Origin: an uncultured Myxococcales bacterium
GTDB lineage: Bacteria > Desulfobacterota > Binatia > UBA1149 > SPBQ01
DNA length: 64,000 nucleotides
Reading direction: 5' to 3'
NCBI GenBank assembly: GCA_964555245.1
Contig: CAZKRI010000051.1
Span: 57,755 to 121,754 of the forward strand
In this document: piece by piece, positions 5,161 through 64,000 of the stretch
Position numbering within the stretch: the stretch's first letter is position 1
Layout of the letters: each line of letters begins with the position of its first letter
Notes under the pieces: generated by a model
Told to the model about the DNA's origin: nothing
The model's database searches: none
Seen by the model: the letters and a program-made list of their open reading frames with translations, nothing else
Made by a program: the position numbers and the translations under genes

Positions 5161-7707
5161 ATGTACCGACTCGTCATCCGGCTGCGTATACCGATCCTCG
5201 TCGTATCGGTTCTCATCACCGCGTTCTTCGCCCGCCAGATTCCCAACCTGCGCTTCGAGCCGGACGCCGAGGCCTACGTGCCGGAGAACCACCCAGTGCG
5301 CGTCTTCTGGCGAGAAGCCAAGGACCGTTTCGGTCTGGGACGCGAGATTCTCGTCGCCGTCGAGGCGAGCGGACCCGAGGGCGTGTTCACGCCGACGATC
5401 CTCGGCGGGCTTTCGGCTCTGACCGACGCGCTCGCACAGGTGGAAGGAGTCGACGCATCCCAGGTGCGCAGCCTATCGACGGCCGAAGCGATGCTCGGGA
5501 CCGACGAGGGTTTGGACATCCAGAGATTCTTCGAGCAACCGCCGGCCTCGCTGCGCGAGGCTCGTGAGGTCCGAAAGCGGGTCTTCCAGAACCCTGTGTT
5601 TCTCGACCGTTTAGTGTCGCGTGACGGCAGCATCGCGGCGATTTTCCTCAAGTCAGAGCTAGCCGAAGAAGCCGGCCCGCAGGTCTACGCACGGGTAGCG
5701 GACGTCGTCGAGGGCCACACGATAGAAGGAGCGCGCGTCCTGATCGCCGGGATGCCGGCCATCGAGTACGTCTATGGGCGTCAGATGGCCGCCGATCTGC
5801 AACGGCTGATTCCGCTCGCGCTCGCCGCCGTGGTCGCGATCCTGTACGCGTGCTTCCCGACCGTGCCGCTGCGCTCGGTCGCCTTACGCTGCGCGGTGAT
5901 CTTCGCTGGTCTGCTCGCGTGGCAGGCGTACCAGGGTACGTCGTGGCCGCTCGCGACCGTGCTGCTCGCCAGCGTCATCACCGGGCTGCTCAGCGTCGGC
6001 TGCGTGTTCTTTCCCGCAGCGGTGGTCGCGATGTCGGTGGTCTGGACTTGGGGTTTGCAGGCGATGCTCGACCTGCCGGTCTACATCGCGGGCACGTTGG
6101 TGCCACCGCTTCTGCTCGCAATCGGCTGCGCGGATGCGATCCACATCACCGAAGGCTATCACGCACGAATGCGATCCCCGGGCGCCGACAAGACTGGAGC
6201 CGTCGTTGCGGCGATGCAGGAAGCATGGCTGCCGGTGGTGCTGACCTCGCTTACCAACGCGGCCGGATTCGGATCCCTGATCTTCGGCAGTATGGCGGTC
6301 TATCGGGTCTTTGGCCTGACCGCCGCGTTCGGATTGCTCGTCGCCATGGTGCTTTCCGTGACGTTTCTGCCGGCGGGGCTCTCCCTCCTGCCGGTGCCGC
6401 GCGCTGGCCTGCAGCGGCCGGGATCGTCCGGCTTGACGCGATTCTTGGTCCGCATGGCCGAGCGGCTCGAAGCCCGCCGCATGCTGGTGCTCGGCTGCAC
6501 GACCGCGGTCGTCGCGGTGTTCGGCTACTACGCCGCCTCGTTGAAAATCGACTACTCCTGGGTAGAGAGCTTGGCGCCGGACACGCCCGTGCTGGAGGCC
6601 GACCGGGTCCTGCGCACCCGCCATGGAGGAACGACGCCGTTGAACGTCATCGTGCGAGCACCGGCAGCCGACGGCATCAAGGATCCCAATCTGCTGCGCG
6701 CGATCGATCGCGTGCTGACCTCGATCGCCGAGCATCCAGCGGTAGGCGATACGCGCTCGATCGCGGAATACATCAAGCGCATGAACCAGGCGATGAACGA
6801 GGACCGGGAAGATGCCTTCCGGATCCCCGACAGCCGCGAACTGGTCGCCCAGTATCTTCTGCTCTACTCGATGTCGGGTGACCCGACCGAGTACGATGAC
6901 TTGACCGACTACGACTACCAGGCCGCCAATCTCTCGATTCTGCTGCGTACCGATCGACTCTCGGTCATCCACGAGGTCGACGAGCAGCTCTCCGGCCTGC
7001 TCGACGCGAACCTGTCTCCACTCGGCGCCAGCGCGACGATTACCGGCTCGGCGAACGTGCTGGAAACGATCCTCGATATGGTGGTCGACAGTCAGATCGG
7101 GTCGTTGGGGTCGGCGACGGCCATGGTCGGGATCTTCCTGTGGATCTTCTTTCGTTCGCTGCGCGACGCGATGATCTGCCTGCTACCGATGCTGGTGACG
7201 GCGGTCGTCAACTTCGGCGGGATGACGATGCTCGGAATCCCGCTGGGTCCGGACAAGGCGATGATCGGCGCGATCGCGCTCGGCCTGGGTATCGATTACT
7301 CGATCCACCTGATGTCGCGCTTCCACCGCACGCTCGCCGCTGGCATGACCGTCAATCAAGGAGTAGTCGAGGCGATGCGGAGCATCGGCAGGGCGATCCT
7401 CTTCAACGGCGCCGTCGTGGTCGCGGGCTTCTTGGTGCTCGGCACCTCGGCGACACCGAGCAATGCGACGTTCGGTCTGATGATCGCCAGTAACATCGTA
7501 CTGGCGTGTGTGACCGCAATAGCGGTGGTGCCGGCCGCGCTTGCCGTGGTCGGACACGTCGTGCTACGCCGGGCGCAACGCCGGCCGGTACGTATCGCCG
7601 GCCGTCTGTTCGACGCGAGCACCGCGCGCGCCCTCGGCGTCGGCGGCGATCCAGCGATGACGACACGCGGTGAATCCGCGGCGGAGCCATTGGAAGTCGG
7701 CTCGTAG
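5161..7707 (+). CDS. MMPL/RND family transporter
   Basis: Two TM blocks with IGCADAIH and LGIDYSIH motifs plus periplasmic loops; 848 aa. Confidence 0.9.
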   Translation: MYRLVIRLRIPILVVSVLITAFFARQIPNLRFEPDAEAYVPENHPVRVFWREAKDRFGLGREILVAVEASGPEGVFTPTILGGLSALTDALAQVEGVDASQVRSLSTAEAMLGTDEGLDIQRFFEQPPASLREAREVRKRVFQNPVFLDRLVSRDGSIAAIFLKSELAEEAGPQVYARVADVVEGHTIEGARVLIAGMPAIEYVYGRQMAADLQRLIPLALAAVVAILYACFPTVPLRSVALRCAVIFAGLLAWQAYQGTSWPLATVLLASVITGLLSVGCVFFPAAVVAMSVVWTWGLQAMLDLPVYIAGTLVPPLLLAIGCADAIHITEGYHARMRSPGADKTGAVVAAMQEAWLPVVLTSLTNAAGFGSLIFGSMAVYRVFGLTAAFGLLVAMVLSVTFLPAGLSLLPVPRAGLQRPGSSGLTRFLVRMAERLEARRMLVLGCTTAVVAVFGYYAASLKIDYSWVESLAPDTPVLEADRVLRTRHGGTTPLNVIVRAPAADGIKDPNLLRAIDRVLTSIAEHPAVGDTRSIAEYIKRMNQAMNEDREDAFRIPDSRELVAQYLLLYSMSGDPTEYDDLTDYDYQAANLSILLRTDRLSVIHEVDEQLSGLLDANLSPLGASATITGSANVLETILDMVVDSQIGSLGSATAMVGIFLWIFFRSLRDAMICLLPMLVTAVVNFGGMTMLGIPLGPDKAMIGAIALGLGIDYSIHLMSRFHRTLAAGMTVNQGVVEAMRSIGRAILFNGAVVVAGFLVLGTSATPSNATFGLMIASNIVLACVTAIAVVPAALAVVGHVVLRRAQRRPVRIAGRLFDASTARALGVGGDPAMTTRGESAAEPLEVGS

Positions 7708-12003: not shown

Positions 12004-13481
12004 ATGAAGCGCAGTTGTCTGTCGTTGGCCGTACTGATCGGCGTCGTCGCGATATGTCCGCGCGATGCCGTGGCACAATCGGCGAAGCCGAACGTCGTCT
12101 TCATCATGGCCGACGACCTCGGAAACGCGGACCTCGGCTATCGCGGCGGAGAAATCCAAACACCCTATATCGACAGGTTGGCCAAGGAAGGCGTACGCCT
12201 AGAGTCCTTCTACGGGGAGCCCGTCTGCACTCCCTCACGGGCCGCGCTCATGACCGGGCGCTACCCGATGCGGTACGGACTGCAGACGCTCGTCATCTTT
12301 CCCAGCCACACCTACGGCCTGCCGACGGACGAGCGCACCCTCCCTCAAGCGCTGAAAGACGTCGGGTATGAAACCGCGATCGTCGGCAAGTGGCACCTCG
12401 GCCACGCCGACACGAAGTATTGGCCACAGAATCGTGGGTTCGACTACTTCTATGGAAACGTCGTCGGCGAGGTGGACTACTTCACGCGTGAGCGGGGCGG
12501 GATCATCGACTGGCAGCGCAACGGAACGTTCCTGAAGGAGAAGGGGTACTACACTCAGCTGATCGGCGACGATGCGGTCCGTCTCATCAGCGAGCACGAC
12601 ACGTCCAAACCGTTGTTTCTCTACTTCGCGTCGCTCGCGCCTCACGCACCTTACGAGGCGCCGCCGGAGTATGTCGCCCGCTACGCGGGCATCGCGGGCG
12701 AGAAGCGGCGTACGTACGCCGCGATGATCACCGTGCTGGACGATCAGGTCGGTCGCATCGTCGCCGCGCTGGAACGGAAAGGCATGCCAACACGCTGATC
12801 ATTTTCGCCAGCGACAATGGTGGTGCCACCAGCGCGCTGTTCGCGACCGGTGCGCGCTCCGAAGAGGAACGGGCGGAGAGCGGCGGTGTTGCGCTCGGCG
12901 CGAAGCCGCCGGCATCCAACGGCAATCTGCGCGGAGGCAAGGGCACGCTCCACGAAGGGGGCGTACGGGTGCCGACGTTTTTCAACTGGCCGGCGAAGCT
13001 GAAGCCGCGGGTCGTGGACGAACCGTTGCACATGGTCGACGTCATGCCGACCTTGCTGGCGTTGGCCGGCGGCAAGGGCAGCGCAGACCACCCCTTCGAC
13101 GGGAAGAACATCTGGCCGACCGTGGCGGAGGGACACGATTCCCCGCACGAGGACATCCTCATCAACGTCGAAGCCATTCGCGGTGCAGTCCGCAAAGGAA
13201 AATGGAAGCTCGTCGTGTGGGCGACGCTGCCAGGCAAGACCGAGCTGTTCGATCTGTCGGCGGATCCCGGCGAGCAGAACGACCTGGCGGAGCGCCGTCC
13301 CGACGTCGTCCGCGATCTCGCAGCTCGGCTCACGGCCTACGCGAAACAGCAGAAGCCGAGCCAATGGATCAAGGCACAGCCGGCTTACCTGGGCGCACAG
13401 GGCAAGACCGTCCTGGATCCGGACTTCGACGTGGACGACGGCGGTCTGCCGCACGAGAAGCCGGCACTACCGAAGCACTGA
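12004..13481 (+). pseudogene. Arylsulfatase (arylsulfatase B-like), frameshifted at ~12787
   Basis: Signal peptide, DDLG, CTPSR and GKWHLG motifs; NTLIIFASDNGG continues in another frame into ORF 12969-13481. Confidence 0.85.
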
Positions 13482-13503
13482 GCAGGACGGAGAGAATCAG
13501 ACC

Positions 13504-15036
13504 ATGAAACGAATCGTCGGACTCGTCGCCGTCCTACTCTGCACGCTCGCGGTCAGCACCGCGCATGCCACGGGCGAGAAGCCCAACATCTTCGTCATCA
13601 TGGGTGACGACATCGGGATGTGGAATCTCAGCACGTACCACCAAGGCATGATGGGTTACAGTACGCCGAACATCGACCGCTTGGCCGCCGAAGGCGGTAA
13701 GTTCATGACCTACTACGCGCAGCAGAGCTGCACGGCGGGTCGATCGGCGTTCATCACCGGGCAGCTGCCGTTTCGAACCGGCCTCAGTAAGGTCGGACTG
13801 CCGGGCGCCGATCTCGGACTACGCAAGGAGGATCCGACCCTCGCCGAGCTGCTGAAGCCGATGGGCTACATGACCGGTCAGTTCGGCAAGAACCACCTCG
13901 GCGACAGAGATGAGTTTCTGCCGACCAATCACGGCTTCGACGAGTTCTTTGGCAACCTCTATCACCTCAACGCGGAGGAAGAGCCCGAAAACCCCGACTA
14001 TCCGCCAGCTCCCGAGTTCAAGAAGAAGTTCGGCCCGCGCGGCGTCCTGCGAGCGACGGCGGGCGGAAAGATCGAGGATACGGGGCCGCTGACGATCGAA
14101 CGGATGAAGACGATCGACGAAGAAGTCCTCGCCGCGGCGACCGATTTTCTCGCCGGCGCGCAGAAGACCGACAAACCGTTCTTCCTGTGGTTTAACACCA
14201 CCCGCATGCACAACTTTACCCACGTGAAGGACGAGAACCTGGGTAAGACCGGCCTCGGCTTCTATGCAGACGGAATGGTCGAGCACGACGCGCTGGTCGG
14301 CAAGCTGCTCGACGCCGTCGACGAGATGGGTCTGGCCGAGAACACCATCGTCCTCTACCTCACGGACAACGGCCCCATGGTGTGCCTGTTCCCGGACTCC
14401 GGCACCACGCCGTTTCGGGGCGAGAAGAACACCAATTGGGACGGTGGCTGGCGCGTGCCCGCCCTGATCCGTTGGCCGGGAGTGGTGAAGCCGGGCACCG
14501 TGTTCACCGACACCTTCGCGGGAGAAGACTGGTTGCCTACGTTGCTCGCGGCGGCGGGCGAGCCGGACATCACGTCGAAGCTTCTCAAGGGTCACAAAGC
14601 CGGCAACACGACCTACAAGGTTCATCTCGACGGTTACGATCAGAGCCAGTACTTGGCCGGAAAGGGCCCAGGAAAGCGCAAGGAGTTCTTCTACTTCAGC
14701 GACGACGGCGACTTGCTCGCCGTTCGCTACGATCACGTCAAGGTTCACTTCGCGATCCAGGAGTCGAAGGGAATCGACGTGTGGCGTCGCCCGTTTACCA
14801 CGCTGCGCGCGCCGATCTTCTTCGATCTAGCGGTCGATCCGTTCGAGCGCGGGGACGAGGGCATGAATTACGATGAGTGGTGGTACCGCCGCGCATTCAT
14901 CGCCGTGCCGATGCAGCAGATCGTCGGCCAGACGCTGGCGTCTTTCAAGGAATTTCCGCCACGACAGAGGCCGGCGAGCTTCACGATCGACCAGGCGATG
15001 GAGCAGTTGATGCGCGCGAGCGGGGGCGGGAAATGA
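13504..15036 (+). CDS. Arylsulfatase
   Basis: Signal peptide, GDDIG, SCTAGRS (C-x-A-x-R), GKNHLG and TDNG motifs. Confidence 0.92.
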   Translation: MKRIVGLVAVLLCTLAVSTAHATGEKPNIFVIMGDDIGMWNLSTYHQGMMGYSTPNIDRLAAEGGKFMTYYAQQSCTAGRSAFITGQLPFRTGLSKVGLPGADLGLRKEDPTLAELLKPMGYMTGQFGKNHLGDRDEFLPTNHGFDEFFGNLYHLNAEEEPENPDYPPAPEFKKKFGPRGVLRATAGGKIEDTGPLTIERMKTIDEEVLAAATDFLAGAQKTDKPFFLWFNTTRMHNFTHVKDENLGKTGLGFYADGMVEHDALVGKLLDAVDEMGLAENTIVLYLTDNGPMVCLFPDSGTTPFRGEKNTNWDGGWRVPALIRWPGVVKPGTVFTDTFAGEDWLPTLLAAAGEPDITSKLLKGHKAGNTTYKVHLDGYDQSQYLAGKGPGKRKEFFYFSDDGDLLAVRYDHVKVHFAIQESKGIDVWRRPFTTLRAPIFFDLAVDPFERGDEGMNYDEWWYRRAFIAVPMQQIVGQTLASFKEFPPRQRPASFTIDQAMEQLMRASGGGK

Positions 15037-15077
15037 GGATTGCAATGACTCGCGCGGCCCCTAAAGGAGGACCTGTC

Positions 15078-15362
15078 ATGAAGAAGATCGTAGGGATGAT
15101 GGTGACGCTTGCGGTGGCGATGTACGCGCAACTAGCGCTGGCTGGCCCGCTCGACCCGGATTGCACCGCCGAGAAGGCGGCTAAAGGTGCGGCCGCCAAG
15201 GCCACCGTGGGCGTGGGCGGCCGCTGCTCGCCCGCCGAGGCCGCCAAGGACTCGGCGAAACGCGCCGCCGGCGTCGAGGACAAAGGACCGATCGAGAAGC
15301 GACGCGACGACAACAAGCTCGGAGAGGTTGTCAAGGACGCGGTAGAGCAAGGCGCGCCTTGA
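15078..15362 (+). CDS. Small secreted Ala/Lys-rich protein with 2 Cys
   Basis: Strong RBS AAAGGAGG; signal peptide ending ALA; stop overlaps the next start. Confidence 0.75.
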   Translation: MKKIVGMMVTLAVAMYAQLALAGPLDPDCTAEKAAKGAAAKATVGVGGRCSPAEAAKDSAKRAAGVEDKGPIEKRRDDNKLGEVVKDAVEQGAP

Positions 15363-17749
15363 CGCTCGAGCACCACCAGACGTATACAGCTGCGCGTCTC
15401 TTCACCGCTGCCCTGTGCGGGCTGTTGAGTCAGCCTATTTCTGTTTCTGCCGGTGCATCGCCTGACGACGGCTCGGTACTTCCGTTTCCACCGACTCCTT
15501 CGGCCAGCGTAGCCGCGCCGAGGCTGCAGGATTCCAAGCAACAGCGGCGGGTAGAGAAGAGCCGCCTGGCGAAGGATGCCCCCAACATTCTCATCATCTT
15601 ACTCGACGATGTTGGCTTCGGTCTGCCCGACACTTACGGCGGGCCGATTCATACGCCGACGCTGACGCGCATCGCGAATCAGGGCATCAGCTACAACGCA
15701 TTCCACACCACTGCGATCTGCTCGCCGACACGTGCAGCGCTGCTGACCGGCCGCAATCATCAGCGCGTCGGCTCCGGCACGATCGCCGAGCGCGCGGTCG
15801 ATTGGGACGGCTACTCCGGTGTGATCCCGAGGACTTCTGCGACCCTTGCGAAGGTTCTCGGCGCCTACGGCTACAAGACGTCGGCCTTCGGCAAGTGGCA
15901 CAACACCCCCGCGACCGAAACCACGGCGATGGGACCGTTCACCCTTTGGCCGACCGGCGAGGGCATCGGCTTCGACTATTTCTACGGCTTTCTCGCCGGC
16001 GAGACCTCGCAGTGGGAGCCGCGACTGGTCGAGAACTTCAACCCGATCGAGCCGCCGCCCGACGAGAAATACCACTTGAGCGAAGACATGGCGGAGAAGG
16101 CGATCACGTGGATGCGCAAGCACCGCGCGTTCTCGCCCGACGAGCCGTTTTTCATGTACTGGGCCCCCGGCGCTGCGCACGGGCCGCACCACGTCTTCAA
16201 GGATTGGGCCGACAAGTACGAGGGCAAGTTCGACGGTGGCTGGGATGCCCTGCGCGAGCGCACCTTCGAGCGCCAGAAAGAGCTCGGTTGGATCCCCGCG
16301 GACGCCGAGCTCACGCCGCGAGCCGAGAACATGGCCGGGTGGGACAGCATCCCCGAGCCGGAGCGGCCGTTCCAGCTACGATTGATGGAAGTGTTCGCCG
16401 GCTTCGTCGAGCACGTCGACACCCAGGCCGGCAAGGTGATCGACGAGCTGGACCGCCTCGGCATCCGCGACAACACGATCGTGATCTACGTCTTCGGGGA
16501 CAACGGCTCGAGCGCGGAGGGCCAGAACGGCAGCATCAGCGAGTTGTTGGCCCAGAACCAGATCCCCACCACAATCCAGCAGCAGCTCGACGCGCTAAAA
16601 AAGATCGGCGGCTTGAACGCGCTTGGTGGTCCGAAGGTGGACAACATGTATCACGCCGGCTGGGCGTGGGCGGGCAGCACGCCGTTCCATCACACCAAGC
16701 TCGTCGCCTCGCACTTCGGCGGAACGCGGAACCCTTTGGCGATCTCGTGGCCCGCGCGCATCAAACCCGACATGACGCCGCGGCCGCAGTTTCACCACGT
16801 CAACGACATCGTGCCGACGCTCTACGAGATCCTCGGCATCGAGCCGCCGAAGCTGGTCGACGGGTTCGAGCAGGACCCGATCGACGGCACGAGCATGGCC
16901 TACACCTTTGCCGACGCCGCAGCGCCCGCGCGCAAGCGCACGCAGTACTTCGACAACAACGGCAGCCGCGGCATCTATCACGACGGCTGGTATGCCTGCA
17001 CCTTCGGGCCGCTGACGCCGTGGCTGACCGTGAGCCCGGGACTGAGTACGTGGGATTCAGACAGGGATGTCTGGGAGCTCTACGACCTCAGCACCGACTT
17101 TTCGCAGGCCGAGAACCTCGCAGCGAAGGAGCCCAAGCGGGTCGAAGACCTGAAGTCGCTGTTCCTCAAAGAAGCGAAGGCGAACAAGGTCTTCCCGATC
17201 GGCGCTGGCATTTGGCTGCGCATTCACCCGGAGGATCGCGTCAAGACGCCCTACACGAGCTGGCAGTTCGACGCGACGACGACCCGCATGCCCGAATTCG
17301 CGGCACCGGGCCTCGGTCGCGAGAGCAACCGCGTCACCGTCGATGTCGAGCTCGACAAGAATGCGTCCGGCGTTCTCTATGCGCTGGGCGGCGCCTCCGG
17401 AGGCCTAACGCTCTATCTGGACAAGGGCCGGCTCGTCTACGAGTACAACATGATGATCATCGAGCGCTACACCGCGCGTTCGAAAGAGAAGCTCGTGGCG
17501 GGCAAGCACCGGATCGAAGTGGACACGACGATCGCAAAGCCCGGCGCGCCGGCAGAGGTGGTGCTCACGGTCGACGGTGAAGCGGTCGCCCGCACGACGG
17601 TCAAGCGCACCGTGCCCGCCGCATTCACCGCCAGCGAAACGTTCGACGTCGGCGTCGATCTTGGCTCGCCGGTGTCGCTCGCCTATCTTGACAAGAGGCC
17701 GTTCCGCCTCGACGGGAACATCGACGTCGTGCGCGTCGAGTTGAGGTGA
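15359..17749 (+). CDS. Arylsulfatase (long AtsA-like, with C-terminal beta-domain)
   Basis: LDDVGFG, CSPTR, GKWHN and GDNG motifs; 796 aa. Confidence 0.92.
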   Translation: MTLEHHQTYTAARLFTAALCGLLSQPISVSAGASPDDGSVLPFPPTPSASVAAPRLQDSKQQRRVEKSRLAKDAPNILIILLDDVGFGLPDTYGGPIHTPTLTRIANQGISYNAFHTTAICSPTRAALLTGRNHQRVGSGTIAERAVDWDGYSGVIPRTSATLAKVLGAYGYKTSAFGKWHNTPATETTAMGPFTLWPTGEGIGFDYFYGFLAGETSQWEPRLVENFNPIEPPPDEKYHLSEDMAEKAITWMRKHRAFSPDEPFFMYWAPGAAHGPHHVFKDWADKYEGKFDGGWDALRERTFERQKELGWIPADAELTPRAENMAGWDSIPEPERPFQLRLMEVFAGFVEHVDTQAGKVIDELDRLGIRDNTIVIYVFGDNGSSAEGQNGSISELLAQNQIPTTIQQQLDALKKIGGLNALGGPKVDNMYHAGWAWAGSTPFHHTKLVASHFGGTRNPLAISWPARIKPDMTPRPQFHHVNDIVPTLYEILGIEPPKLVDGFEQDPIDGTSMAYTFADAAAPARKRTQYFDNNGSRGIYHDGWYACTFGPLTPWLTVSPGLSTWDSDRDVWELYDLSTDFSQAENLAAKEPKRVEDLKSLFLKEAKANKVFPIGAGIWLRIHPEDRVKTPYTSWQFDATTTRMPEFAAPGLGRESNRVTVDVELDKNASGVLYALGGASGGLTLYLDKGRLVYEYNMMIIERYTARSKEKLVAGKHRIEVDTTIAKPGAPAEVVLTVDGEAVARTTVKRTVPAAFTASETFDVGVDLGSPVSLAYLDKRPFRLDGNIDVVRVELR

Positions 17750-43005: not shown

Positions 43006-45000
43006 CTACGGCCGGGCGCTCAGCTCGTGAACTGCATCCACCAGCGCGACGACATGGTCGACCGGGGTCGCCGGCAGCACACCGTGACCGAGATTGAAAA
43101 TGTGTCCCGGGCGCCCGCCGACCTCGTCCAGGATCCGTTTCGCGGCCGTGCGGATGAACGAAGGCTCGGCGAACAAGGCCACAGGGTCGAGATTGCCCTG
43201 CACGGTCAGGCCAGGATAGCGCGCGAATACATCGCCGATCTGAACGCGATGATCCACACCGAGGATGCGCGCGCCGGCGGCCACCTGGTGCTCGAGCAGA
43301 GTCGCCGTGTCGGTGCCGAAGTGAATCAGCGGCACCTCGCCCGGCAGGGCTTCGACGATCTTGCGCATGTGAGGCAGGACGTAGCGGTCGTAGTCGGCCG
43401 GTGAGAGGCAGCCGACCCAGCTGTCGAAGAGCTGGAGCGCCTGGCACCCGGCCTCGATCTGGCCGCGTAGATAGTCCGCGACGGCATCCGCGACCAGCGA
43501 CATCATCGCGTGCCAGGCTCCCTCGTCCGTGTACATCAGAGTCTTGGTCGCCGTGTAGTTGCGCGAGGATCCGCCCTCGACGATGTAGGAGGCCAAGGTG
43601 AACGGAGCGCCGCTGAAACCGATGAGGGGAATATCTGCGGCGAGCTCGGCCCGGGTCTTCCGCACTGCCTCGAATACGTAAGCGAGAGATTCACGCACGT
43701 CCACGCGCCGCAGCCGATCGACATCGGTGCCGCTTCGCACCACTCGGCTGATCGCCGGGCCTTCTCGGGCTGTGTACTCCAGCCCGAGGCCCATGGGCTC
43801 GAGTAACAATAGAATGTCCGAGAACAGGATGGCCGCGTCCGCCCCGATGCGTTGCTGGGCGGTCACCGCGATCTCGGCGGCCAGCTCCGGGTTCTTGCAC
43901 AGCTCGATGAAGGGCACGCGCGCGCGGACCTCGCGGTACTCCTGCATGTAGCGACCGGCCTGACGCATCAGCCAGACCGGGGTGTAGTCGACCGGCTCTC
44001 CACGACACGCCTTGAGGAAGACGCAGTCCTCCAGCCGGGTCCGCTTCGCGCGAGCCGGTTTGGCTCCAGCCGATTGCGTGACCGAGCCTCGCGCGCGGCG
44101 TTGCGCCGAGCGCTTGGCCGCCAGGAGCGTGCCCGAACGTTCCGCTGCGGCGCGCACCAGATGACCGAGCTTCGTATGCTCGGGTTCCAGATCGACCGCG
44201 ATCGACAGCTCGGCGAGCGTCTCACTGCACACCGGCCCGATGGATGCCACGACGACTTCCTCGAGCGCAGTGCGCAACGTCTCCTGAGCCCCCTGCTCCG
44301 TGGCCTGCTGCAAGAGATGCCGGACCTGGATCGCGCTCGTGAACAGCACGACGTCCACCGTGCGCGCCAGTAGCTGCCGGATCGCATCGGCCAGCGGCCG
44401 GCGATCCTCGGGCAGCGCCCAGCGGTAGACCGGCACCGCATCGACCTCCGCGCCGCGCGCGCGCAACCCCTCGATCAGGCGCGGATTGCTCTCGCCGTAC
44501 TCTTGAACGGCGACCCGCGCGCCTTGCAGCTCGACGCCGCGGCTGCTCTCGGCGGTGGCCGCGAGCAACTCACGCCAGGTATTGGGCTCGGGAACCGCCA
44601 CGGCGATCGGCACGCCCAACTCGCGTAGAACCGCGACTGGCTTGGGACCGCGCGCAACCACCGTCGTCTTCGACAGCGCGGCGACGAGGCTCGTGCGGTC
44701 GTAGTGCGTTTCCATCGCTTCGAAGAGATGGCGCGTGCCGACGCCGGTCAGGAAGATGACGGTGTCGTACTTGCCGCCCAGCAATCCTTCCGCGAAGGCC
44801 AGCGCCTGCGGGTTCTCGCCGATGGGGATCTCGCGCATCGACGGAGCCGAGATCGGTACTCCGCCGGCTTTCTCGATCAGTCGCGCGGTTTCGGTCGCGA
44901 GCCGGCTCTCGAATGCCACGACCCGCAGCCCGCCGAAGTCGACGGCATCCTTGGTCGGCGTGCTCTTGATGTCGGCATCCGTCACGGTCGCGGCGAGCAT
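43006..45000 (-). CDS. hemE: Fusion: uroporphyrinogen-III synthase (HemD) + uroporphyrinogen decarboxylase (HemE)
   Basis: N-half: FESRLA, FLTGVG, ARGPKP, PEPNTW, YRWALP, FTSAIQV, IGPVCS; C-half: WLMRQAGRY, FSDIL, QLFDSW, QGNLDP, FNLGHG; one uninterrupted 664-aa ORF. Confidence 0.9.
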   Translation of the reverse strand: MLAATVTDADIKSTPTKDAVDFGGLRVVAFESRLATETARLIEKAGGVPISAPSMREIPIGENPQALAFAEGLLGGKYDTVIFLTGVGTRHLFEAMETHYDRTSLVAALSKTTVVARGPKPVAVLRELGVPIAVAVPEPNTWRELLAATAESSRGVELQGARVAVQEYGESNPRLIEGLRARGAEVDAVPVYRWALPEDRRPLADAIRQLLARTVDVVLFTSAIQVRHLLQQATEQGAQETLRTALEEVVVASIGPVCSETLAELSIAVDLEPEHTKLGHLVRAAAERSGTLLAAKRSAQRRARGSVTQSAGAKPARAKRTRLEDCVFLKACRGEPVDYTPVWLMRQAGRYMQEYREVRARVPFIELCKNPELAAEIAVTAQQRIGADAAILFSDILLLLEPMGLGLEYTAREGPAISRVVRSGTDVDRLRRVDVRESLAYVFEAVRKTRAELAADIPLIGFSGAPFTLASYIVEGGSSRNYTATKTLMYTDEGAWHAMMSLVADAVADYLRGQIEAGCQALQLFDSWVGCLSPADYDRYVLPHMRKIVEALPGEVPLIHFGTDTATLLEHQVAAGARILGVDHRVQIGDVFARYPGLTVQGNLDPVALFAEPSFIRTAAKRILDEVGGRPGHIFNLGHGVLPATPVDHVVALVDAVHELSARP

Positions 45001-58026: not shown

Positions 58027-58536
58027 ATGAATCCTATCGACGCCATCCAACTGTTCGCCAAGACGCTGCAGAACCTCGAGCGGTGGATGGACAAGGCCAC
58101 CGCGTACGCGAAGGCCCGATCCTTCGAGGTCGACGTGCTCGCCCAGGCCCGCCTGGCGCCGGATCAGTTTGGGTTTGTCCGCCAGGTGCAGTCCGCCTGC
58201 GACCAGGCGAAGTACGCGGCCGCGTACCTCGGCGGCAAGGCGGCGCCGTCCCACCCGGATACGGAGCAGACGTTCGCCGAGCTGCGGCAGCGGATCCAGA
58301 CGTGCCTCAGCTTCCTCGAGACCGTCCAGGCGAAGGACTTGGCCGGAGCCGACGAGCGGAAGGTGGCTCCACCTTGGCTCAGCGGGAAGTGGCTCCGCGG
58401 CGACGACTATCTGGTGCACGTCGCGCTGCCGAATTTCTTCTTCCATGCGACGATGGCGTACGCGATCCTCCGCCACAACGGCGTCGAGCTCGGCAAGATG
58501 GACTACATCGGCTCGATTCCGACGAAGGAAGGCTGA
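58027..58536 (+). CDS. DUF1993 family protein
   Basis: ARLAPDQF, QVQSACD and LPNFFFHATMAYAILRHNGVELGKMDYIG motifs. Confidence 0.9.
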   Translation: MNPIDAIQLFAKTLQNLERWMDKATAYAKARSFEVDVLAQARLAPDQFGFVRQVQSACDQAKYAAAYLGGKAAPSHPDTEQTFAELRQRIQTCLSFLETVQAKDLAGADERKVAPPWLSGKWLRGDDYLVHVALPNFFFHATMAYAILRHNGVELGKMDYIGSIPTKEG

Positions 58537-58592
58537 GCTCGGCCAGCTTTTCGAGGATTTCGTCGGCCCCGCTGGCGGCGCAAGCTCAAGGC

Positions 58593-59615
58593 ATGCGACA
58601 AGTATGGATCACGAAGGCCGGTCCTCCCGAAGTGCTCGCGGTCAAGGAAGCTCCGGATCCTGTGCCCAAGCCAGGCGAGCTCCGCGTGCGCGTGGAGGCA
58701 GCAGGCGTCAACTTCGCCGACATCATGGGGCGCATGGGCATGTACCCGGATCTCCCGGGCATTCCGATCGTCGTCGGTTACGAGGTCGGCGGTCGCGTCG
58801 ATGCCGTGGGCGAAGGTACGGACAACAGTTGGGTGGGGCGCGACGTCTTCGCCCTCACGCGCTTTGGCGGCTACTCGGATGTCGTCTGCGTGCCGCAGAA
58901 CCAAGTGTTCGCGCGGCCACCCGGAATGTCGGCGGCAGCGGGCGCGGCGATCCCGGTGAACTACTTCACCGCCTACGTGCTCGTCGTCGTGATGGGTGGG
59001 CTCCGCAAGGGCGAGACCATGCTCGTGCACTCGGCCGGCGGCGGTGTCGGTATCGCGGCCACGCAGCTCGCCAAGCACATCGGTGCGGTGGTTATCGGCA
59101 CCGCGTCGAGCTCCAAGCACGAGTTCCTACGAGGCATCGGTGTCGATCATCTCATCGACTATACACGCGAGGACTTCGAGAAGCGGACCACCGAGATCAC
59201 GCGCGGCCGCGGGGTCGAGCTCATCCTTGATGCTGTGGGCGGCGAGTCGTTCAAAAAAGGCTATCGCTTGCTCGCGCCGACGGGGCGTCTGGGGATGTTC
59301 GGCATGTCGTCGGCGGCGACCGGCAAGCAGCGGAGCGTGGCGAGCCTGCTCCGCACCGTGGTCTCGATGCCGTGGCTGCAGGTCACGCCGGTCTCGCTCA
59401 TCGACAAGAACAGATCCGTCTTCGGCGTCAATCTAGGACATCTTTGGGGCGAGGTGGACCGTATCCGCACGTGGGCCGATCATCTGCTCGAGCTCTGGGG
59501 CAAGGGCGTCGTTCGGCCTCACGTGGACAAGATCTTCCCGTTCGCCGAAGCCGCCGCGGCTCACCACTACATTCACGATCGCCGCAACATCGGGAAGGTG
59601 TTGTTGGCGCCGTAG
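58593..59615 (+). CDS. MDR/quinone oxidoreductase-like (VAT-1 homolog) dehydrogenase
   Basis: GVNFAD, GYEVGG, HSAGGGVG and NIGKVLL motifs. Confidence 0.9.
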   Translation: MRQVWITKAGPPEVLAVKEAPDPVPKPGELRVRVEAAGVNFADIMGRMGMYPDLPGIPIVVGYEVGGRVDAVGEGTDNSWVGRDVFALTRFGGYSDVVCVPQNQVFARPPGMSAAAGAAIPVNYFTAYVLVVVMGGLRKGETMLVHSAGGGVGIAATQLAKHIGAVVIGTASSSKHEFLRGIGVDHLIDYTREDFEKRTTEITRGRGVELILDAVGGESFKKGYRLLAPTGRLGMFGMSSAATGKQRSVASLLRTVVSMPWLQVTPVSLIDKNRSVFGVNLGHLWGEVDRIRTWADHLLELWGKGVVRPHVDKIFPFAEAAAAHHYIHDRRNIGKVLLAP

Positions 59616-59631
59616 CCGGGACGTGGCCGCC

Positions 59632-60273
59632 TCAACGAAGCAATCGGCGCACACCGGGCGCGCCGAACGTCGCTTCGAAGGACGGATGGCGTTTCTCGTC
59701 GACGACCTTGAAGCCGGCGCCCTCATAGGCGCGCTGCGCCGGGGTGTTTCCGATCAGCACGCCGATCTGCGAGAGCGTGTGTCCTTGCTGACGGCCGACG
59801 TCGAGGATCGCGCCCAAGAGTGCTCGAGTTAACCCCTTTCCTCGGTATTGCGGAGCCGTCGCGACCCACTCGAGTATCCACGCGTCCTCCGGCATCTCCG
59901 GAACGCACGTGAGAAACGGAGCGATGCGCTGTTGCATCGCTCCCATCCGGGCCTCTGTCCAACCTTCGGTGGTGAGCGCTTCGACCATCGCTTGCAGGAG
60001 CATCACTCCAGTCGCGGCGGCGGGGTTCTCATAGCCCGACAGTGCCGCGGCGGGCTTGCCGGCGACCTCGGCGATCAGGAAGCCTGACCAGTGGCAGAAC
60101 GACTTTGCCTCGGCGCGGCAGATCCGCTCGATGATGCGCAGGCGATACTCATCGGGGCCAGGGAACGCCAGGTCCCAGAAGCCGAACGGCAAGTGCGAGC
60201 GCGATGCTTCCTGTTGTACCCATGCGAGAAAAGGCGCGTCGGTTGCGGTCGCCGGTCGAATGCTGAATTCCAT
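59632..60273 (-). CDS. GNAT family N-acetyltransferase
   Basis: IRPAT, VATAPQYRGKG and NTPAQRAYEGAGF motifs. Confidence 0.88.
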   Translation of the reverse strand: MEFSIRPATATDAPFLAWVQQEASRSHLPFGFWDLAFPGPDEYRLRIIERICRAEAKSFCHWSGFLIAEVAGKPAAALSGYENPAAATGVMLLQAMVEALTTEGWTEARMGAMQQRIAPFLTCVPEMPEDAWILEWVATAPQYRGKGLTRALLGAILDVGRQQGHTLSQIGVLIGNTPAQRAYEGAGFKVVDEKRHPSFEATFGAPGVRRLLR

Positions 60274-60353
60274 CGTCGGACTATGCCATGCGATCACGGC
60301 TCTGTCGCGCACGGGGTGGACATAGCGATACCGGTCGGACACACGAAGCTCCT

Positions 60354-61028
60354 ATGCCAAAACCCCATGCCCTTACGATGCCGCTGGAAGACGCGATGCG
60401 TACCCAACGTGCGATTCGCCGTCTTAAACCCGACCCCGTCGACGATGACCTCGTGCTCCATCTGATCGAGCTTGCGCTTAGGGCGCCGACCGGATCGAAC
60501 GCGCAGAACTGGGAGTTCATCGTCGTGAAGGACCCGGCTGTGAGGGCGCGGCTGGGGAGTCTCAACCGCCGTGCCTTTTCGCTCTACGGCGGACTCGGCC
60601 GCAGACAGAACCGACGCGCCGGCAATCAAGCGATGCTTCGCATCCTGGATGCCGTGCAGTGGCAAGCGGATCACTTCGAGGAGATCCCCGTGATCGTCGT
60701 CGCCTGTCTCAACGGCTGGATTCCGCCGTGGCCCCCGATTGCCGCCTCCAGTCTATACGGGTCGATCTATCCCTCGGTGCAGAACCTTCTGCTCGCCGCG
60801 CGGGCCGCCGGCCTCGGGGCCGCTCTCATTACGCTGCCGCTCTGGAGCAAACTGCTCGCTCAGCGCGCGCTCGGCTTGCCGTTCAAGGTCACGCCCGTCG
60901 CCGTGATTCCGCTGGGCTGGCCGACGGGCCGCTACGGACCGACTACACGCAGGCCCGTCGGCGAGGTGGTGTCGCTCGACCGGTATGGGAACCGGGCGTT
61001 TCTGGAGCGAGCGGGCGAGCCCGGATAG
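60354..61028 (+). CDS. Nitroreductase family protein
   Basis: TQRAIRR, APTGSNAQNWEF, QNLLLAARAAGLG and IPLGWP motifs. Confidence 0.9.
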   Translation: MPKPHALTMPLEDAMRTQRAIRRLKPDPVDDDLVLHLIELALRAPTGSNAQNWEFIVVKDPAVRARLGSLNRRAFSLYGGLGRRQNRRAGNQAMLRILDAVQWQADHFEEIPVIVVACLNGWIPPWPPIAASSLYGSIYPSVQNLLLAARAAGLGAALITLPLWSKLLAQRALGLPFKVTPVAVIPLGWPTGRYGPTTRRPVGEVVSLDRYGNRAFLERAGEPG

Positions 61029-61196
61029 AGATCCCCGACGGGCCGACTTTCCCCGCAACTCTACCGTAGTTTTGCATTGCAATTCTACGGTGGTGATGGC
61101 GGATTGCGACGGTGATCGGCGAGCCGCTGCGCCTTCTTCCCATGCCTGACAGGTCGTTCTTCGTCTTTGGGCCGCGCGGCGTTGGCAAGAGCACAG

Positions 61197-62492
61197 CTAC
61201 GCGGCCTTCGCTTCCGTGAACACCGGCGCGAAGCCGCCGCCGGCGGTGCGGAAGTTGGTCGTCTGACCGCGGTAGAGACGCGCAGCCACCAGCTGTACCC
61301 GTCCGTCGTAGACGTAGTTGCGAAGGTCGAGCTTGAGAGGCATCTCGACACCGTCGACGAGGATGGTCCGCTCGGTCGGCGCGACCACGCGTTGCACGAC
61401 GTAGTCGCGTTTCAGAATCTCCTCCCAAGTCGAACGCGTGAGCTTGTCGCCGCGATAGGCGGCCTTGCTGCCGTACCCGATCGCGGGTTTGAAGAAGTAG
61501 CCCTTGCGCTCGCGCCAGAACTCCTCGGCACGCGCGGGATCGAGGCGACGCGTTTCGGGAACGCCGGCCGCGAGCGTGAGTCGGATCGGTTCGGGCACGC
61601 CCCACGATCGCAATCGTTCGGTGTCGGAGAGCACCGTGAGCAAGCGCTTGTCCGCGTACAGCGCGTAGGTCCGAGGGTGGGGCGATACGACCACCACGCC
61701 CGCTTCGTACGCCGACCGAATCGCGGCCGACCCCTCGGCCTCGAAATAGAAATCGGTGAGGCGGTTGTACACGAAATCGATCCGGCGCCCGTGCGCGGTG
61801 AGCTCGCCGCCCGCATGGCGAAGGTCGGCTACGTCGACGATCTCGGCGTCGACGCCAGCGCGCCGGAACAGCTCGCGGAACAGCAGAAACTCCGGGTACA
61901 AGAACTGTTTCGCGGGCTCCTCGTCGACGATCGCGATCGATCGGAGCGGCTCATCGCCGCGCTGGAGCCGCCACTCGCTTTGGAACATTGCGACCAGCTC
62001 GTCCTGCAGCCGATTCGGATCGGTGCTCGAGCCGAGCATGGCGGACACGTCCTGGCAGCAGGCCTGCTGCGCTCCCGCGAGAGCGGCGTTGAGTAGAGCC
62101 CCACCGGCATTGGTGTTGATCTCGATGAGCTGCGGTCCGTTGTGTCCGAGGTGAAAATCGTAGCCCAAGAACACGCCACGCGGGCCGTGGTCGTGCAGCG
62201 CGATGCGCGGTGCGGCGTCGAGCGCGTGACGGCGAAACGGTTCGCTCGCGACCACCGCTTCGATCGCCGTCACCACCGCCTGCATCTGATCGAGCTGCGC
62301 GCGAGCGAGAAACACCGGCGAATCGGAGAACAGATTCGGCTGATCCTTGAGGATCGAGGCATAGACGCCAGCCGTCTCGGCGCTCGACTCCAGGCGTTCG
62401 CGGAGCTTGACCGGATCGACGGCGATGCAGTGGCATCGCCGATTGAGCTCTTCGGCGATCGCGGAGGGATCGAACCCAGCCTCATCCGTCAC
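61197..62492 (-). CDS. Circularly permuted ATP-grasp (amidoligase-like) protein
   Basis: YDFHL...LIEINTNAGG, FFKPAIGYGS, YVVQRVV, KLDLRNY and TTNFRTAGGG. Confidence 0.75.
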   Translation of the reverse strand: MTDEAGFDPSAIAEELNRRCHCIAVDPVKLRERLESSAETAGVYASILKDQPNLFSDSPVFLARAQLDQMQAVVTAIEAVVASEPFRRHALDAAPRIALHDHGPRGVFLGYDFHLGHNGPQLIEINTNAGGALLNAALAGAQQACCQDVSAMLGSSTDPNRLQDELVAMFQSEWRLQRGDEPLRSIAIVDEEPAKQFLYPEFLLFRELFRRAGVDAEIVDVADLRHAGGELTAHGRRIDFVYNRLTDFYFEAEGSAAIRSAYEAGVVVVSPHPRTYALYADKRLLTVLSDTERLRSWGVPEPIRLTLAAGVPETRRLDPARAEEFWRERKGYFFKPAIGYGSKAAYRGDKLTRSTWEEILKRDYVVQRVVAPTERTILVDGVEMPLKLDLRNYVYDGRVQLVAARLYRGQTTNFRTAGGGFAPVFTEAKAA

Positions 62493-62526
62493 GCGCGCGT
62501 TCTAGCACGCGCCACGTGAACGCTGT

Positions 62527-62550
62527 AATGGGGTCAGGTCTAATTTCCGC
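62527..62550. repeat. Single half copy of the REP-like element
   Basis: AATGGGGTCAGGTCTAATTTCCGC, differing from 33660-33684 by 1 substitution and 1 deletion. Confidence 0.7.
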
Positions 62551-62555
62551 TGCGG

Positions 62556-63962
62556 CTAGAGGCTCCGAAGGCTGACCGTGCAGTGGCGCACGACGCATTC
62601 CGCGCGAACTTCTTCGGCGCGGGCGCTGCACGCCTCGGGAGCGACGCCTTCGGCGGCGCACGTTTGCCCGAACTCTTCGGCCGCCGCGGCGCACTCTTGC
62701 TCGCACGACGGTGGCACGTCGTGGCATTCCGAGGCAACGCACTCGCTAGCGATCTCGGCGGCTCGAGCGCGGCATGCCTCGGGATCGATCCCATCCTCGA
62801 TGCAACCGGAGAGGAAGTCGCTCGCTTTGCGCTTGCACCATTCGTCGCAAGTCGGAGGAGCGGTGGCGCAGCGCTCGACGACGCAGGCCTGCTCGACGGC
62901 TTCGGCTCGCTCGCCGCAAGCCTCCGGATCGCTGCCTTGCTGCGCGCAATGAGCCTCGAACTCGTCCGCGCCTGCTGCACATTTGTCTTCGCAGGTCGCG
63001 GGATCGTCGTTGGGCGCGCAGTTCTCCTGGAGGCAAGCGTCGACGATCACGCGTGCGCGCTCCGCGCAGCGCGCGTCATCCGCCCCGCAGCTCTGCAGGA
63101 ACGCCTCACCGCGCGCGGCGCAGGCTTGCTCGCACGTCGGCGGCTGCTGGTCCTCGCAGTTGTCCGCGATGCACTGAGCCCGCACGCCCGTGGCGGCTTC
63201 GCGACACGACTCCTCGGAGCCACCGCCGCTCACGCAACTGTCGAACTGTTCCCTTGCCGCTGCCGTGCAGCGGTCTTCGCACGACGGTTTGTGGCTGCAC
63301 TCCAAAGCGAGGCATTGCTCGAGAGCGCTCGCGGCCCGAGCCTCGCACGCCGCCGGTTCGCCACCTTCATCGACGCAACCGGCGAGCAGCTTCCTGGCGC
63401 GCGCGTGACAGGCCTCTTCGCAGGTGGTCTCTGGCTCGCAGTTCTCGACGACGCATGCACCAAACGCCACGCGGGCCCGGTGTCCACAGCCGCGGCTCGG
63501 ATTCCCCTCGGCCACGCATTGGTCGCGCAGGTCGGCGGCGAGATCGGCGCAGCCCGCTTCGCAGGTTGGCCGGCCGTCGCAGCTTTCGGCAAGACACGCG
63601 CTCAGCACCTCGCGCGCGCTCAGCGCGCACTCCTCTTCGGCGCCGCCGGATTCCACGCACTGCTCGAAGTTGGACCGCGCCAGCTCCGAGCAGCGCCGCT
63701 CGCAGGAGGTGACCGGATCACAGTGTTTCTCGAGACACTCCTTGAAGGCCTGCTCGCCCTGTCCCCGGCAACCGACCCTGGGCATTCCGCCGGCGACGCA
63801 GCCTTCCACGGTGCCCCATGCGTACGACCGGCAGAGCGTGACGCACGGAGGTTTGCAGCTTGGTTCCGTCACCCCGATGGGTTCGGTTGCCAGGGCAGCG
63901 CCAGACGAACCGGCTTCGAGCGCCAAGACGAGGAGTGACAAGACGATCCAACGACGTTGCAT
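62556..63962 (-). CDS. Secreted protein with nine tandem ~47-aa six-cysteine repeats
   Basis: GAGAGGG RBS; signal peptide ending ALA; C-x3-C-x10-C-x9-C-x10-C-x4-C repeated nine times; 55 Cys in total. Confidence 0.85.
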   Translation of the reverse strand: MQRRWIVLSLLVLALEAGSSGAALATEPIGVTEPSCKPPCVTLCRSYAWGTVEGCVAGGMPRVGCRGQGEQAFKECLEKHCDPVTSCERRCSELARSNFEQCVESGGAEEECALSAREVLSACLAESCDGRPTCEAGCADLAADLRDQCVAEGNPSRGCGHRARVAFGACVVENCEPETTCEEACHARARKLLAGCVDEGGEPAACEARAASALEQCLALECSHKPSCEDRCTAAAREQFDSCVSGGGSEESCREAATGVRAQCIADNCEDQQPPTCEQACAARGEAFLQSCGADDARCAERARVIVDACLQENCAPNDDPATCEDKCAAGADEFEAHCAQQGSDPEACGERAEAVEQACVVERCATAPPTCDEWCKRKASDFLSGCIEDGIDPEACRARAAEIASECVASECHDVPPSCEQECAAAAEEFGQTCAAEGVAPEACSARAEEVRAECVVRHCTVSLRSL

Positions 63963-64000
63963 GAGATTTCCCTCTCGACCCAGGGCCCGCACGATCGGCC

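Follow-up and report, generated by a model that had tools for sequence, protein, structure and literature searches.

A predicted array of nine six-cysteine alpha-hairpins in a putatively exported bacterial protein

The gene and its protein

The gene considered here lies at the end of a 64,000-nucleotide stretch of contig CAZKRI010000051.1 (assembly GCA_964555245.1) from an uncultured Myxococcales bacterium, and this whole stretch is referred to below as the window. Its product is a 468-residue protein, 12% of it Cys carried in CxxxC motifs on predicted helices, that begins with a putative signal peptide and continues as nine tandem units (Table 1) joined by linkers of 5–8 residues. Successive Cys residues are separated by 3, 10, 9, 10 and 4 residues in eight units and by 3, 10, 6, 10 and 4 residues in unit 6. 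An initial annotation of the locus, made from the DNA alone, had described 55 Cys, nine units and an x6 turn in unit 6, and our count of the Cys gaps agrees with it exactly; the strand (minus) had gone unstated. The signal peptide that it had noted is likewise recognizable by eye, and the mature protein would number ~443 residues, with a pI of ~4.5 and a net charge of ~-43.

The GC content at codon positions 1, 2 and 3 of the open reading frame (ORF) is 70%, 58% and 78%, in surrounding DNA of 66% GC, and the value at the third position compared with the second is in keeping with real coding on the minus strand. Translation could also begin in frame at a GTG (63992) or at a second ATG, which precedes the one at 63962 by 60 nt and lies past the window end; this second ATG is seen in the Logan contig L001 and would give a 488-residue variant. 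The 468-residue protein is called identically on two Logan contigs. The protein contains the unit motif nine times, whereas none of 20,000 shuffles that preserve its composition contains it more than once, which excludes a chance origin of the repeat. The nine units are 34% identical to one another at the protein level (24% outside Cys) and 49% at the DNA level; Tandem Repeats Finder does not detect the array in the DNA of the gene. The nine units are ancient duplicates, and since they are old and divergent while the Cys framework is kept, selection must maintain that framework.

Long shadow ORFs are common in GC-rich DNA and a 451-residue plus-strand ORF overlaps the gene, which lends some color to the idea that the array is non-functional, either a chance ORF or a decaying repeat. 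Against this stand the retention of the Cys framework in units so divergent outside their Cys, the occurrence of the same framework in hundreds of relatives, the third-position GC content in frame together with a Shine-Dalgarno motif, and coverage in a run labeled as RNA-Seq (see below). The 451-residue ORF is itself the shadow ORF, the probability that the array is non-functional is negligible, and the artefact reading is refuted for practical purposes.

Table 1. Features of the gene, its product and its surroundings; positions are those of the window unless L001 is named.
Feature	Position	Strand	Remarks
Complete coding sequence	62556..63962	minus	468 aa, 55 Cys; ATG 63962, stop 62556-62558
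Shine-Dalgarno-like GAGAGGG	63970..63976	minus	7 nt upstream of ATG; read from sequence
Putative signal peptide, aa 1-25 (MQRRWIVLSLLVLALEAGSSGAALA)	63888..63962	minus	AxA cleavage site before TEP; judged by eye
Mature N-terminal segment, aa 26-39	63846..63887	minus	carries C36
Hairpin unit 1, aa 40-81	63720..63845	minus	most divergent of the nine
Hairpin unit 2, aa 87-128	63579..63704	minus	
Hairpin unit 3, aa 134-175	63438..63563	minus	
Hairpin unit 4, aa 181-222	63297..63422	minus	
Hairpin unit 5, aa 228-269	63156..63281	minus	
Hairpin unit 6, aa 277-315	63018..63134	minus	turn 3 residues shorter (C-x6-C)
Hairpin unit 7, aa 324-365	62868..62993	minus	
Hairpin unit 8, aa 372-413	62724..62849	minus	
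Hairpin unit 9, aa 420-461	62580..62705	minus	followed by 7-residue tail TVSLRSL
431-aa ORF	61197..62492	minus	63 nt downstream of hairpin gene
Genes upstream of the window end	L001 1..5035		divergent GFA-family gene, FG-GAP protein, two DHOR-family proteins
Toxin-antitoxin pairs	L001		RES + Xre-family antitoxin; BrnT + CopG-like antitoxin
337-aa secreted protein	L001		poly-Thr linker; no family match

The six-cysteine unit, its predicted fold and its family

The anatomy of the unit can be read from 405 canonical units of the family described below, whose consensus is P-P-P-[T/D/S]-C1-E-x-R-C2-x3-[A/G]-x2-[V/A]-[F/Y]-x2-C3-[L/V/I]-x2-G-G-[D/S/T]-[E/P]-[E/D]-x-C4-x3-A-x2-x-[L/F]-x2-C5-[V/L/I]-x3-C6. 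The Gly-rich turn of the initial annotation is a family trait: 91% of units have Gly at position 24, and 62% have it at position 25. The small residues Ala13 and Ala34 lie midway on each helix face and let the helices pack tightly; positions 17, 21, 38 and 42 are hydrophobic, and capping residues precede the helices at positions 4 and 26. Apart from the Cys, all conserved positions have a structural part. The surface varies between units and is acidic, with a mean unit charge of -4.3 and 84% of family units negative, and neither His (2.0%) nor Met (1.1%) is enriched. The linkers of the family are 28% Pro and most commonly 5 residues long, and no conserved motif or processing site was found in them; the Pro-containing linkers ending in (T/S)-C-(E/D) that had been described for this protein are borne out, the family form being T/S/D-C-E.

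A full-length AlphaFold2 model, built from a shallow alignment of 5 rows, contains 18 helices that form nine hairpins, with pLDDT values of 82–92 within the units and linkers of low confidence. A model of units 4–5 alone, from an alignment of 17 two-unit windows, reaches a mean pLDDT of 95.6 and places helices at residues 5–22, 27–45, 52–69 and 74–92; in it C1 is the first helical residue, C6 falls just beyond helix 2 and a four-residue Gly turn lies between C3 and C4. Both models favor the helix-turn-helix hairpin that had been proposed from the Cys spacing.

On the two predicted helices the Cys residues lie 3/4, 14/15 and 18/20 residues from the turn, a symmetry that gives the register expected of nested pairs, and across the family 269 units show the spacing 3-10-9-10-4 and 184 the exact palindrome 3-10-9-10-3. 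Losses of Cys tell a similar story. We scored 1,614 family units, drawn from representative proteins and from independent metagenome ORFs: in the former 804 units keep all six Cys, 7 are without both C3 and C4 and 2 are without one Cys, the corresponding numbers in the latter being 770, 27 and 2. Altogether 1,574 units keep six Cys; exactly C3 and C4 are missing from 34, and a single Cys from 4. Disulfides between units, from C6 to the next C1, were considered and rejected on the evidence of the relative P0001, whose array begins and ends without a spare Cys and keeps C1 and C6 across linkers of 20–24 residues; both features point to closure of C1 with C6 within the unit. Taken with the joint loss of C3 and C4 and the antiparallel geometry of the models, this closure leads us to infer the pairs C1–C6, C2–C5 and C3–C4, the same nested arrangement that the initial annotation had predicted.

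Searches of the databases return no family into which the unit could be placed. The whole protein matches no family in Pfam-A and none in NCBIfam at E<=10, the latter including the Myxococcus cysteine-rich repeat and the SCIFF six-Cys peptides; a sequence search of the PDB finds nothing for the protein and only noise (E>1) for the unit profile; and Foldseek searches of the PDB with the full-length and two-unit models give nothing below an E value of 0.2, searches of this kind being ill suited to a fold as simple as a helical hairpin. When 139 diverse family units were scanned singly against Pfam, all matches were sub-threshold and fell on disulfide-linked helical hairpins, namely thionin (15/139), COX17 (3), hefutoxin (3), COX6B (3) and CX9C (1). 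Unit 2 of the window protein, for example, scores 14.5 bits against the thionin model PF00321, whose gathering cut-off is 23.6, and one relative with 16 units passes that cut-off by summing weak repeats alone, none of its stretches passing singly. Our literature search found no paper describing this repeat from bacteria; a 2026 preprint on “CysRReps” was considered and concerns another repeat. The absence of a significant match in Pfam, NCBIfam or the PDB agrees with the earlier remark that this is not a named bacterial domain.

Relatives exist all the same. A word-index search for homologues gave 2 to 4 of them, and none with 47-residue queries, because the family is too divergent to share 5-mers, and GTDB genomes searched with the protein yielded no related loci. 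The first relatives, P0001 with 11 units and P0002 with 9–10, show ~29% identity and the same spacing. A profile search of the kind that had been suggested as a check on the initial annotation was made with a unit profile of 47 columns and 29 units (A1), scored against 1.84 billion representative proteins, each standing for a cluster at 50% identity; at a cut-off of E<=1e-3 it matches 483 cluster representatives, of which 257 remain at E<=1e-10 and 74 at E<=1e-30. Their number of units ranges from 2 to about 40. A DNA pattern of two consecutive Cys frameworks, run on JGI metagenome contigs, added at least 120 further contigs, and 119 of the 120 listed carry an ORF that matches the unit profile; among the matches listed, to which the counts of metagenome loci and ORFs below also refer, the family loci have a GC content of 57–76%. 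The window protein belongs with these relatives by its unit profile scores (30–48 bits for each of the nine units), its Cys framework, its turn Gly (+4 after C3), its mid-helix Ala and its export signal. A sizeable family with a clear structural hypothesis (at least 483 clusters and hundreds of metagenome loci) goes unnamed in Pfam and NCBIfam, and public records label its members “hypothetical” or by a fused PKD domain. Examples are a “hypothetical protein” of 2,649 residues and ~40 units in a Bradymonadia metagenome-assembled genome (MAG) and, in a Phycisphaerales MAG, a “PKD domain-containing protein”.

Export appears to be general in the family. An N-terminal hydrophobic stretch is present in 113 of 151 members and a lipobox-like motif in 25, and an RR pair precedes the hydrophobic core in just 13 of the 113 signal peptides, a rarity that makes Sec or lipoprotein export the rule. 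In about half of the family the array stands without other domains, as in the window protein; this is the architecture of 41 of 69 complete metagenome ORFs. Among 150 representatives, about 26 have a C-terminal dockerin-like double Ca-loop module, 13 have one to five copies of a Kazal inhibitor domain (also found in 6 of the 69 complete metagenome ORFs), nine have an N-terminal PKD domain and two have antistasin, while single proteins have a trypsin-like protease before five hairpins (P0081) or a YHS metal-binding domain C-terminal to four hairpins (P0090). All of these domain types except YHS are extracellular. In the fused relatives the array occupies the cargo or distal end; the dockerin, for example, lies at the far end, or a lipid anchor and PKD lie at the near one.

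Of the functional links that these fusions suggest, the most specific is to protease inhibitors (Kazal, antistasin) and to a protease (trypsin, P0081), and the recurrent Kazal, antistasin and dockerin-like fusions point to proteolysis outside the cell or to surface assembly as the sphere of the family in uncultured high-GC bacteria. The array might then bind or inhibit extracellular proteases, or serve as a protease-proof carrier of inhibitor heads, in parallel with the plant alpha-hairpinins, some of which are trypsin inhibitors (PMC7191063). We consider such a role rather unlikely for the window protein, which is without a Kazal domain; the turn, G-G-[D/S/T]-[E/P]-[E/D], is acidic and lacks the Arg/Lys of the reactive loop of alpha-hairpinin inhibitors, and in most of the family the array stands alone or beside dockerin-like or PKD domains.

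Genomic context, expression and candidate roles

The upstream context cut off by the window edge is supplied by contig L001, which is identical to the window where the two overlap, and reading these genes (Table 1) reveals no conserved partner. Downstream, the 431-residue ORF has no match in Pfam, NCBIfam or the PDB, and no terminator-like site separates it from the hairpin gene. It contains a stretch, ‘LIEINTNAGG’, that may be reminiscent of ATP-grasp enzymes. A partnership of the RiPP/graspetide type between this ORF and the hairpin gene was considered and rejected on the ORF’s lack of a family match, its absence beside relatives and its almost complete lack of coverage in the RNA-labeled run; nor does any radical-SAM maturase adjoin the hairpin gene. 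None of the window gene’s neighbors recurs beside P0001, P0002, P0151 or P0085. Among the 344 ORFs that neighbor the family at 119 metagenome loci, the most widely shared cluster reaches 5 loci, and the recurrent neighbors are all housekeeping genes (SDR, Ser/Thr kinase, CoA-transferase, PAP2, HemN, luciferase-like, glyoxalase, Lon). With no conserved neighbor across these 5 + 119 loci, the hairpin gene is a stand-alone unit. Thiol-redox genes, namely AhpC/TSA near P0001 and P0151 and the GFA-family gene upstream here, were weighed as possible partners and are regarded as coincidental, being unconserved over the 119 loci.

Some further features were noted in the surroundings. A Cus/Czc-type RND metal efflux operon lies ~3 kb from the relative P0151 (locus L005, 1..6205). 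Within the window, a 664-residue ORF at 43006..45000 (minus strand) carries both HemD (uroporphyrinogen-III synthase) and HemE (uroporphyrinogen decarboxylase) and is apparently a gene fusion. A pair of adjacent sulfatase genes and a transporter of the MMPL/RND type lie at 13183..17749 and 5161..7707 (both plus strand), and an OprB porin, an Amt transporter and RecQ occur elsewhere; these genes are ordinary chromosomal content of a high-GC Gram-negative bacterium. The RecQ has at most 70% identity to that of any species representative in GTDB, and its best hits bear mixed labels, chiefly MAGs of Myxococcota or delta-proteobacteria besides Gemmatimonadota and Latescibacterota.

The window comes from freshwater sediment, and two DNA runs from that habitat contain the whole gene; a sediment run labeled “METAGENOMIC RNA-Seq” contains 80% of the gene’s sampled words, with contigs covering 62274–62881, 63328–63584 and 63646–63950 at a word depth of 3–8. 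In this run the depth over the gene resembles that of genes at 58.6–61.2 kb and is near zero over the downstream ORF (61.4–62.2 kb), whereas the DNA run is flat at ~24. The contrast between the uneven and the flat profile argues for an RNA origin of the run and for transcription of the hairpin gene in situ, the library label being uncertain and the contigs strandless. The initial annotation had named a match to a Pfam family of known function and a silent ORF as grounds for abandoning its reading; no Pfam match was found, and the gene is covered in the RNA-Seq-labeled run. Two peculiarities of the same data concern other genes. At 58200..58600 the depth of the DNA run X1 rises to ~150, against the flat 24, with several single-base variants over a DUF1993 gene, which suggests that this segment is common to several co-occurring strains or species. 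In addition, contigs of both RNA-labeled runs (X3 and X4) contain a joint from 58816 to 61834 that skips 3,017 bases; one side of it is backed by only 21 letters, and it is probably a k-mer-level assembly artefact.

That the protein is exported, that it consists of nine cystine-stapled alpha-hairpins and that it belongs to a large unannotated bacterial family of extracellular repeats is well supported, and we hold this account of its fold and location to be very probably correct. After removal of the signal peptide, an acidic protein of ~443 residues would be exported, made up of nine independent 42-residue modules, each of which would form an antiparallel two-helix hairpin. Helix 1 would run from C1 to just past C3 and be followed by the four-residue Gly-Gly turn, and helix 2 would run from before C4 to C6, with six Cys, two conserved small residues (Ala/Gly) and two hydrophobic residues at the helix interface. 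In the oxidizing cell envelope three nested disulfides would form, C3–C4 by the turn, C2–C5 in the middle and C1–C6 where the hairpin opens. As each hairpin begins and ends on the same side, the nine would stand next to one another on a short Pro-rich backbone formed by the 5–8-residue linkers. The array would then most likely act as a protease- and heat-resistant polyanionic scaffold whose variable surfaces bind a cationic or protein partner multivalently.

This proposed role is more weakly inferred than the fold. The array is probably not an enzyme, and the restriction of conservation to structural positions, the variable acidic surfaces, the lack of an operon partner and the cargo or distal position in fused relatives together suggest a scaffold or binding function in place of catalysis or passive spacing. 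For the whole statement, that the protein is a robust polyanionic extracellular scaffold or multivalent binding module of cystine-stapled alpha-hairpins, we judge the chances to be evenly balanced.

Several points weigh against it. The case for a scaffold or binding role is built on elimination and on the fusion partners, and the distal or cargo position of the array in PKD- and dockerin-bearing relatives marks it as more than a passive spacer. The full-length AlphaFold2 model has a pTM of 0.21 (0.58 for the two-unit model), which leaves the arrangement between units unconstrained. Most of the units without C3 and C4 represent a single conserved and basic cap unit at the C-terminus, C-x3-C-x31-C-x3-C and R/K-rich (e.g., RAARKARRAFRRC), which is always the last unit of its protein, is typical of a subfamily (e.g., P0002 475-518, L101, L106, L108, L114) and is absent from the 468-residue window protein; the joint losses may hence reflect few evolutionary events, and the cap unit still shows that these two Cys disappear together from a unit that remains viable. 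The odd 55th Cys, C36, four residues before unit 1 (S-C-K-P-P-C), is left unpaired by a three-disulfide model and could be a free thiol or an intermolecular link. The relative P0037 likewise has a Cys four residues before its first unit, there probably a lipobox Cys, and in the other proteins listed an extra Cys before a unit is the C6 of the preceding unit. Lastly, an RR pair precedes the hydrophobic core of the window protein’s signal peptide, so that Tat export of a folded, reduced protein is possible.

The last of these points bears on the thiolate-rich metal store that the initial annotation had offered as an alternative, in which reduced Cys would bind Cu(I), Zn or Cd between the helices in the manner of Csp proteins or metallothioneins and the protein would be folded before Tat export. 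The high Cys content with CxxxC on helices would suit such a store, as would the YHS domain of P0090 and the proximity of P0151 to its efflux operon. The signatures of the unit, exactly six Cys with C3 and C4 lost jointly, are nevertheless those of disulfide pairs; no match to DUF326/Csp or to any metal-binding family was found in Pfam or NCBIfam, the prediction is of two-helix hairpins and not of a four-helix bundle with a Cys-lined core, RR is rare among the family’s signal peptides, His and Met are not enriched and metal-resistance genes are not conserved neighbors. On this evidence a metal store is improbable.

The release of the repeats as separate mini-proteins, also raised at the outset, fares no better. 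A polyprotein precursor whose linkers are cut to free nine hairpin peptides, as toxins, antimicrobials or signals, would accord with tandem self-contained modules whose ends lie together, with plant alpha-hairpinins that come from precursors of 5 to 7 modules (PMC7191063) and with the occurrence of the family in lineages that include predatory bacteria (e.g., the Bradymonadia MAG). The linkers, though, are short, Pro-rich and variable, without a conserved basic or other processing motif, the units are acidic and not cationic, many relatives have folded domains joined in frame to one or the other end of the array, and no neighboring protease or exporter is conserved; we regard a precursor as highly improbable.

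A bolder extension of the scaffold or binding reading, which we think unlikely but deserving of mention, is that the six-Cys alpha-hairpin is an unrecognized and widespread extracellular domain (in Myxococcota-like bacteria, Bradymonadia and Planctomycetota) with an activity of its own, for instance as a multivalent protease- or cation-binding module, and an independent counterpart of the plant alpha-hairpinins. If so, the arrays would be secreted within communities of sediment and soil as multi-headed inhibitors or as sponges. The immediate value of the finding lies in annotation and structure more than in mechanism, and a compact, probably hyperstable scaffold may be of interest to protein engineers.

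Comparison with known hairpin systems

The initial annotation had likened the repeat to eukaryotic CX9C and alpha-hairpinin modules, a likeness that stands for the predicted fold and fails for the defining Cys motifs. The alpha-hairpinin motif is C-X3-C-X4-20-C-X3-C in the four-Cys form and C-X3-C-X3-C-Xn-C-X3-C-X3-C, with Xn = 4–20, in the six-Cys form (PMC11591084), and plant alpha-hairpinins such as EcAMP1, VhTI, Luffin P1 and Sm-AMP-X are encoded as tandem modules after a signal peptide, a six-Cys variant with three disulfides being among them (PMC7191063; PMC11591084). The window protein resembles them in its predicted helix-loop-helix, in CX3C on a helix and, if the predicted pairing is right, in nested disulfides. 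It differs in being bacterial, in helices about twice as long (18–19 residues) and in acidic, not basic, units; all nine units depart from the alpha-hairpinin motif, the outer pairs lying 31 residues apart and C5–C6 being X4. Alpha-hairpinins are, moreover, short plant defence peptides from a processed modular precursor, whereas the window protein shows no sign of processing and no detectable sequence homology to them.

The CHCH/twin-CX9C proteins (COX17, Mia40 substrates, COX6B) and the kappa-hefutoxins likewise consist of two antiparallel helices tied by interhelical disulfides, but they have two disulfides, with CX9C or CX3C on both helices, and are eukaryotic single domains of the mitochondrial intermembrane space or of venom. 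The window protein, with spacings of X3 and X10, has no match to CHCH or twin CX9C (PF06747, PF16860) at E<=10, and one relative has a weak sub-threshold Pfam match within the COX17/CX9C/COX6B/CHCH/hefutoxin group. The weak unit matches to thionin (PF00321) align on its helix-turn-helix part; thionins differ in having a beta-sheet and another overall Cys pattern, and the likeness is one of analogy and not of membership. In crambin a local C-x3-G-x5-C spacing around the turn is bridged by the C16–C26 disulfide, which makes a C-x9-C disulfide across such a turn feasible.

Bacterial precedents are more distant. The Hcp proteins of Helicobacter are secreted tandem alpha/alpha hairpins built of 36-residue Sel1/TPR-like repeats with one disulfide each, stacked into a solenoid; the window protein has no Pfam match to Sel1 (PF08238), and its unit has 42 residues, six Cys and Pro-rich linkers. 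The Csp copper storage proteins (DUF326) are four-helix bundles whose CxxxC helices line the core with reduced thiolates, and Csp1 is exported. Cys-rich CxxxC helices are common to both, but the window protein is predicted to form separate two-helix hairpins joined by low-confidence linkers.

At the level of architecture, a signal peptide followed by tandem disulfide-rich modules, thought to give avidity, defines the SCREPs (PMC6262176). The window protein has the same architecture, SCREP being a descriptive class and not a homology family. RECK combines Cys-rich helical repeats with Kazal motifs, a layout that the Kazal-bearing relatives may echo; no RECK-derived Pfam model matches the window protein and no RECK chain appears in the PDB searches.

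A three-disulfide hairpin of 42 residues is among the simplest possible stable folds, and folds of this kind have so far been described in plants, venoms and mitochondria; their use in long tandem arrays on bacterial surfaces suggests convergent evolution. As the unit departs from the defining Cys motifs and has no significant match in sequence or fold, it is not a member of the alpha-hairpinin, CHCH/CX9C or hefutoxin families, and its resemblance to the cystine-stabilized hairpins of eukaryotes is probably convergent. The most fitting description of the repeat is that of a known structural principle in a new, bacterial form.

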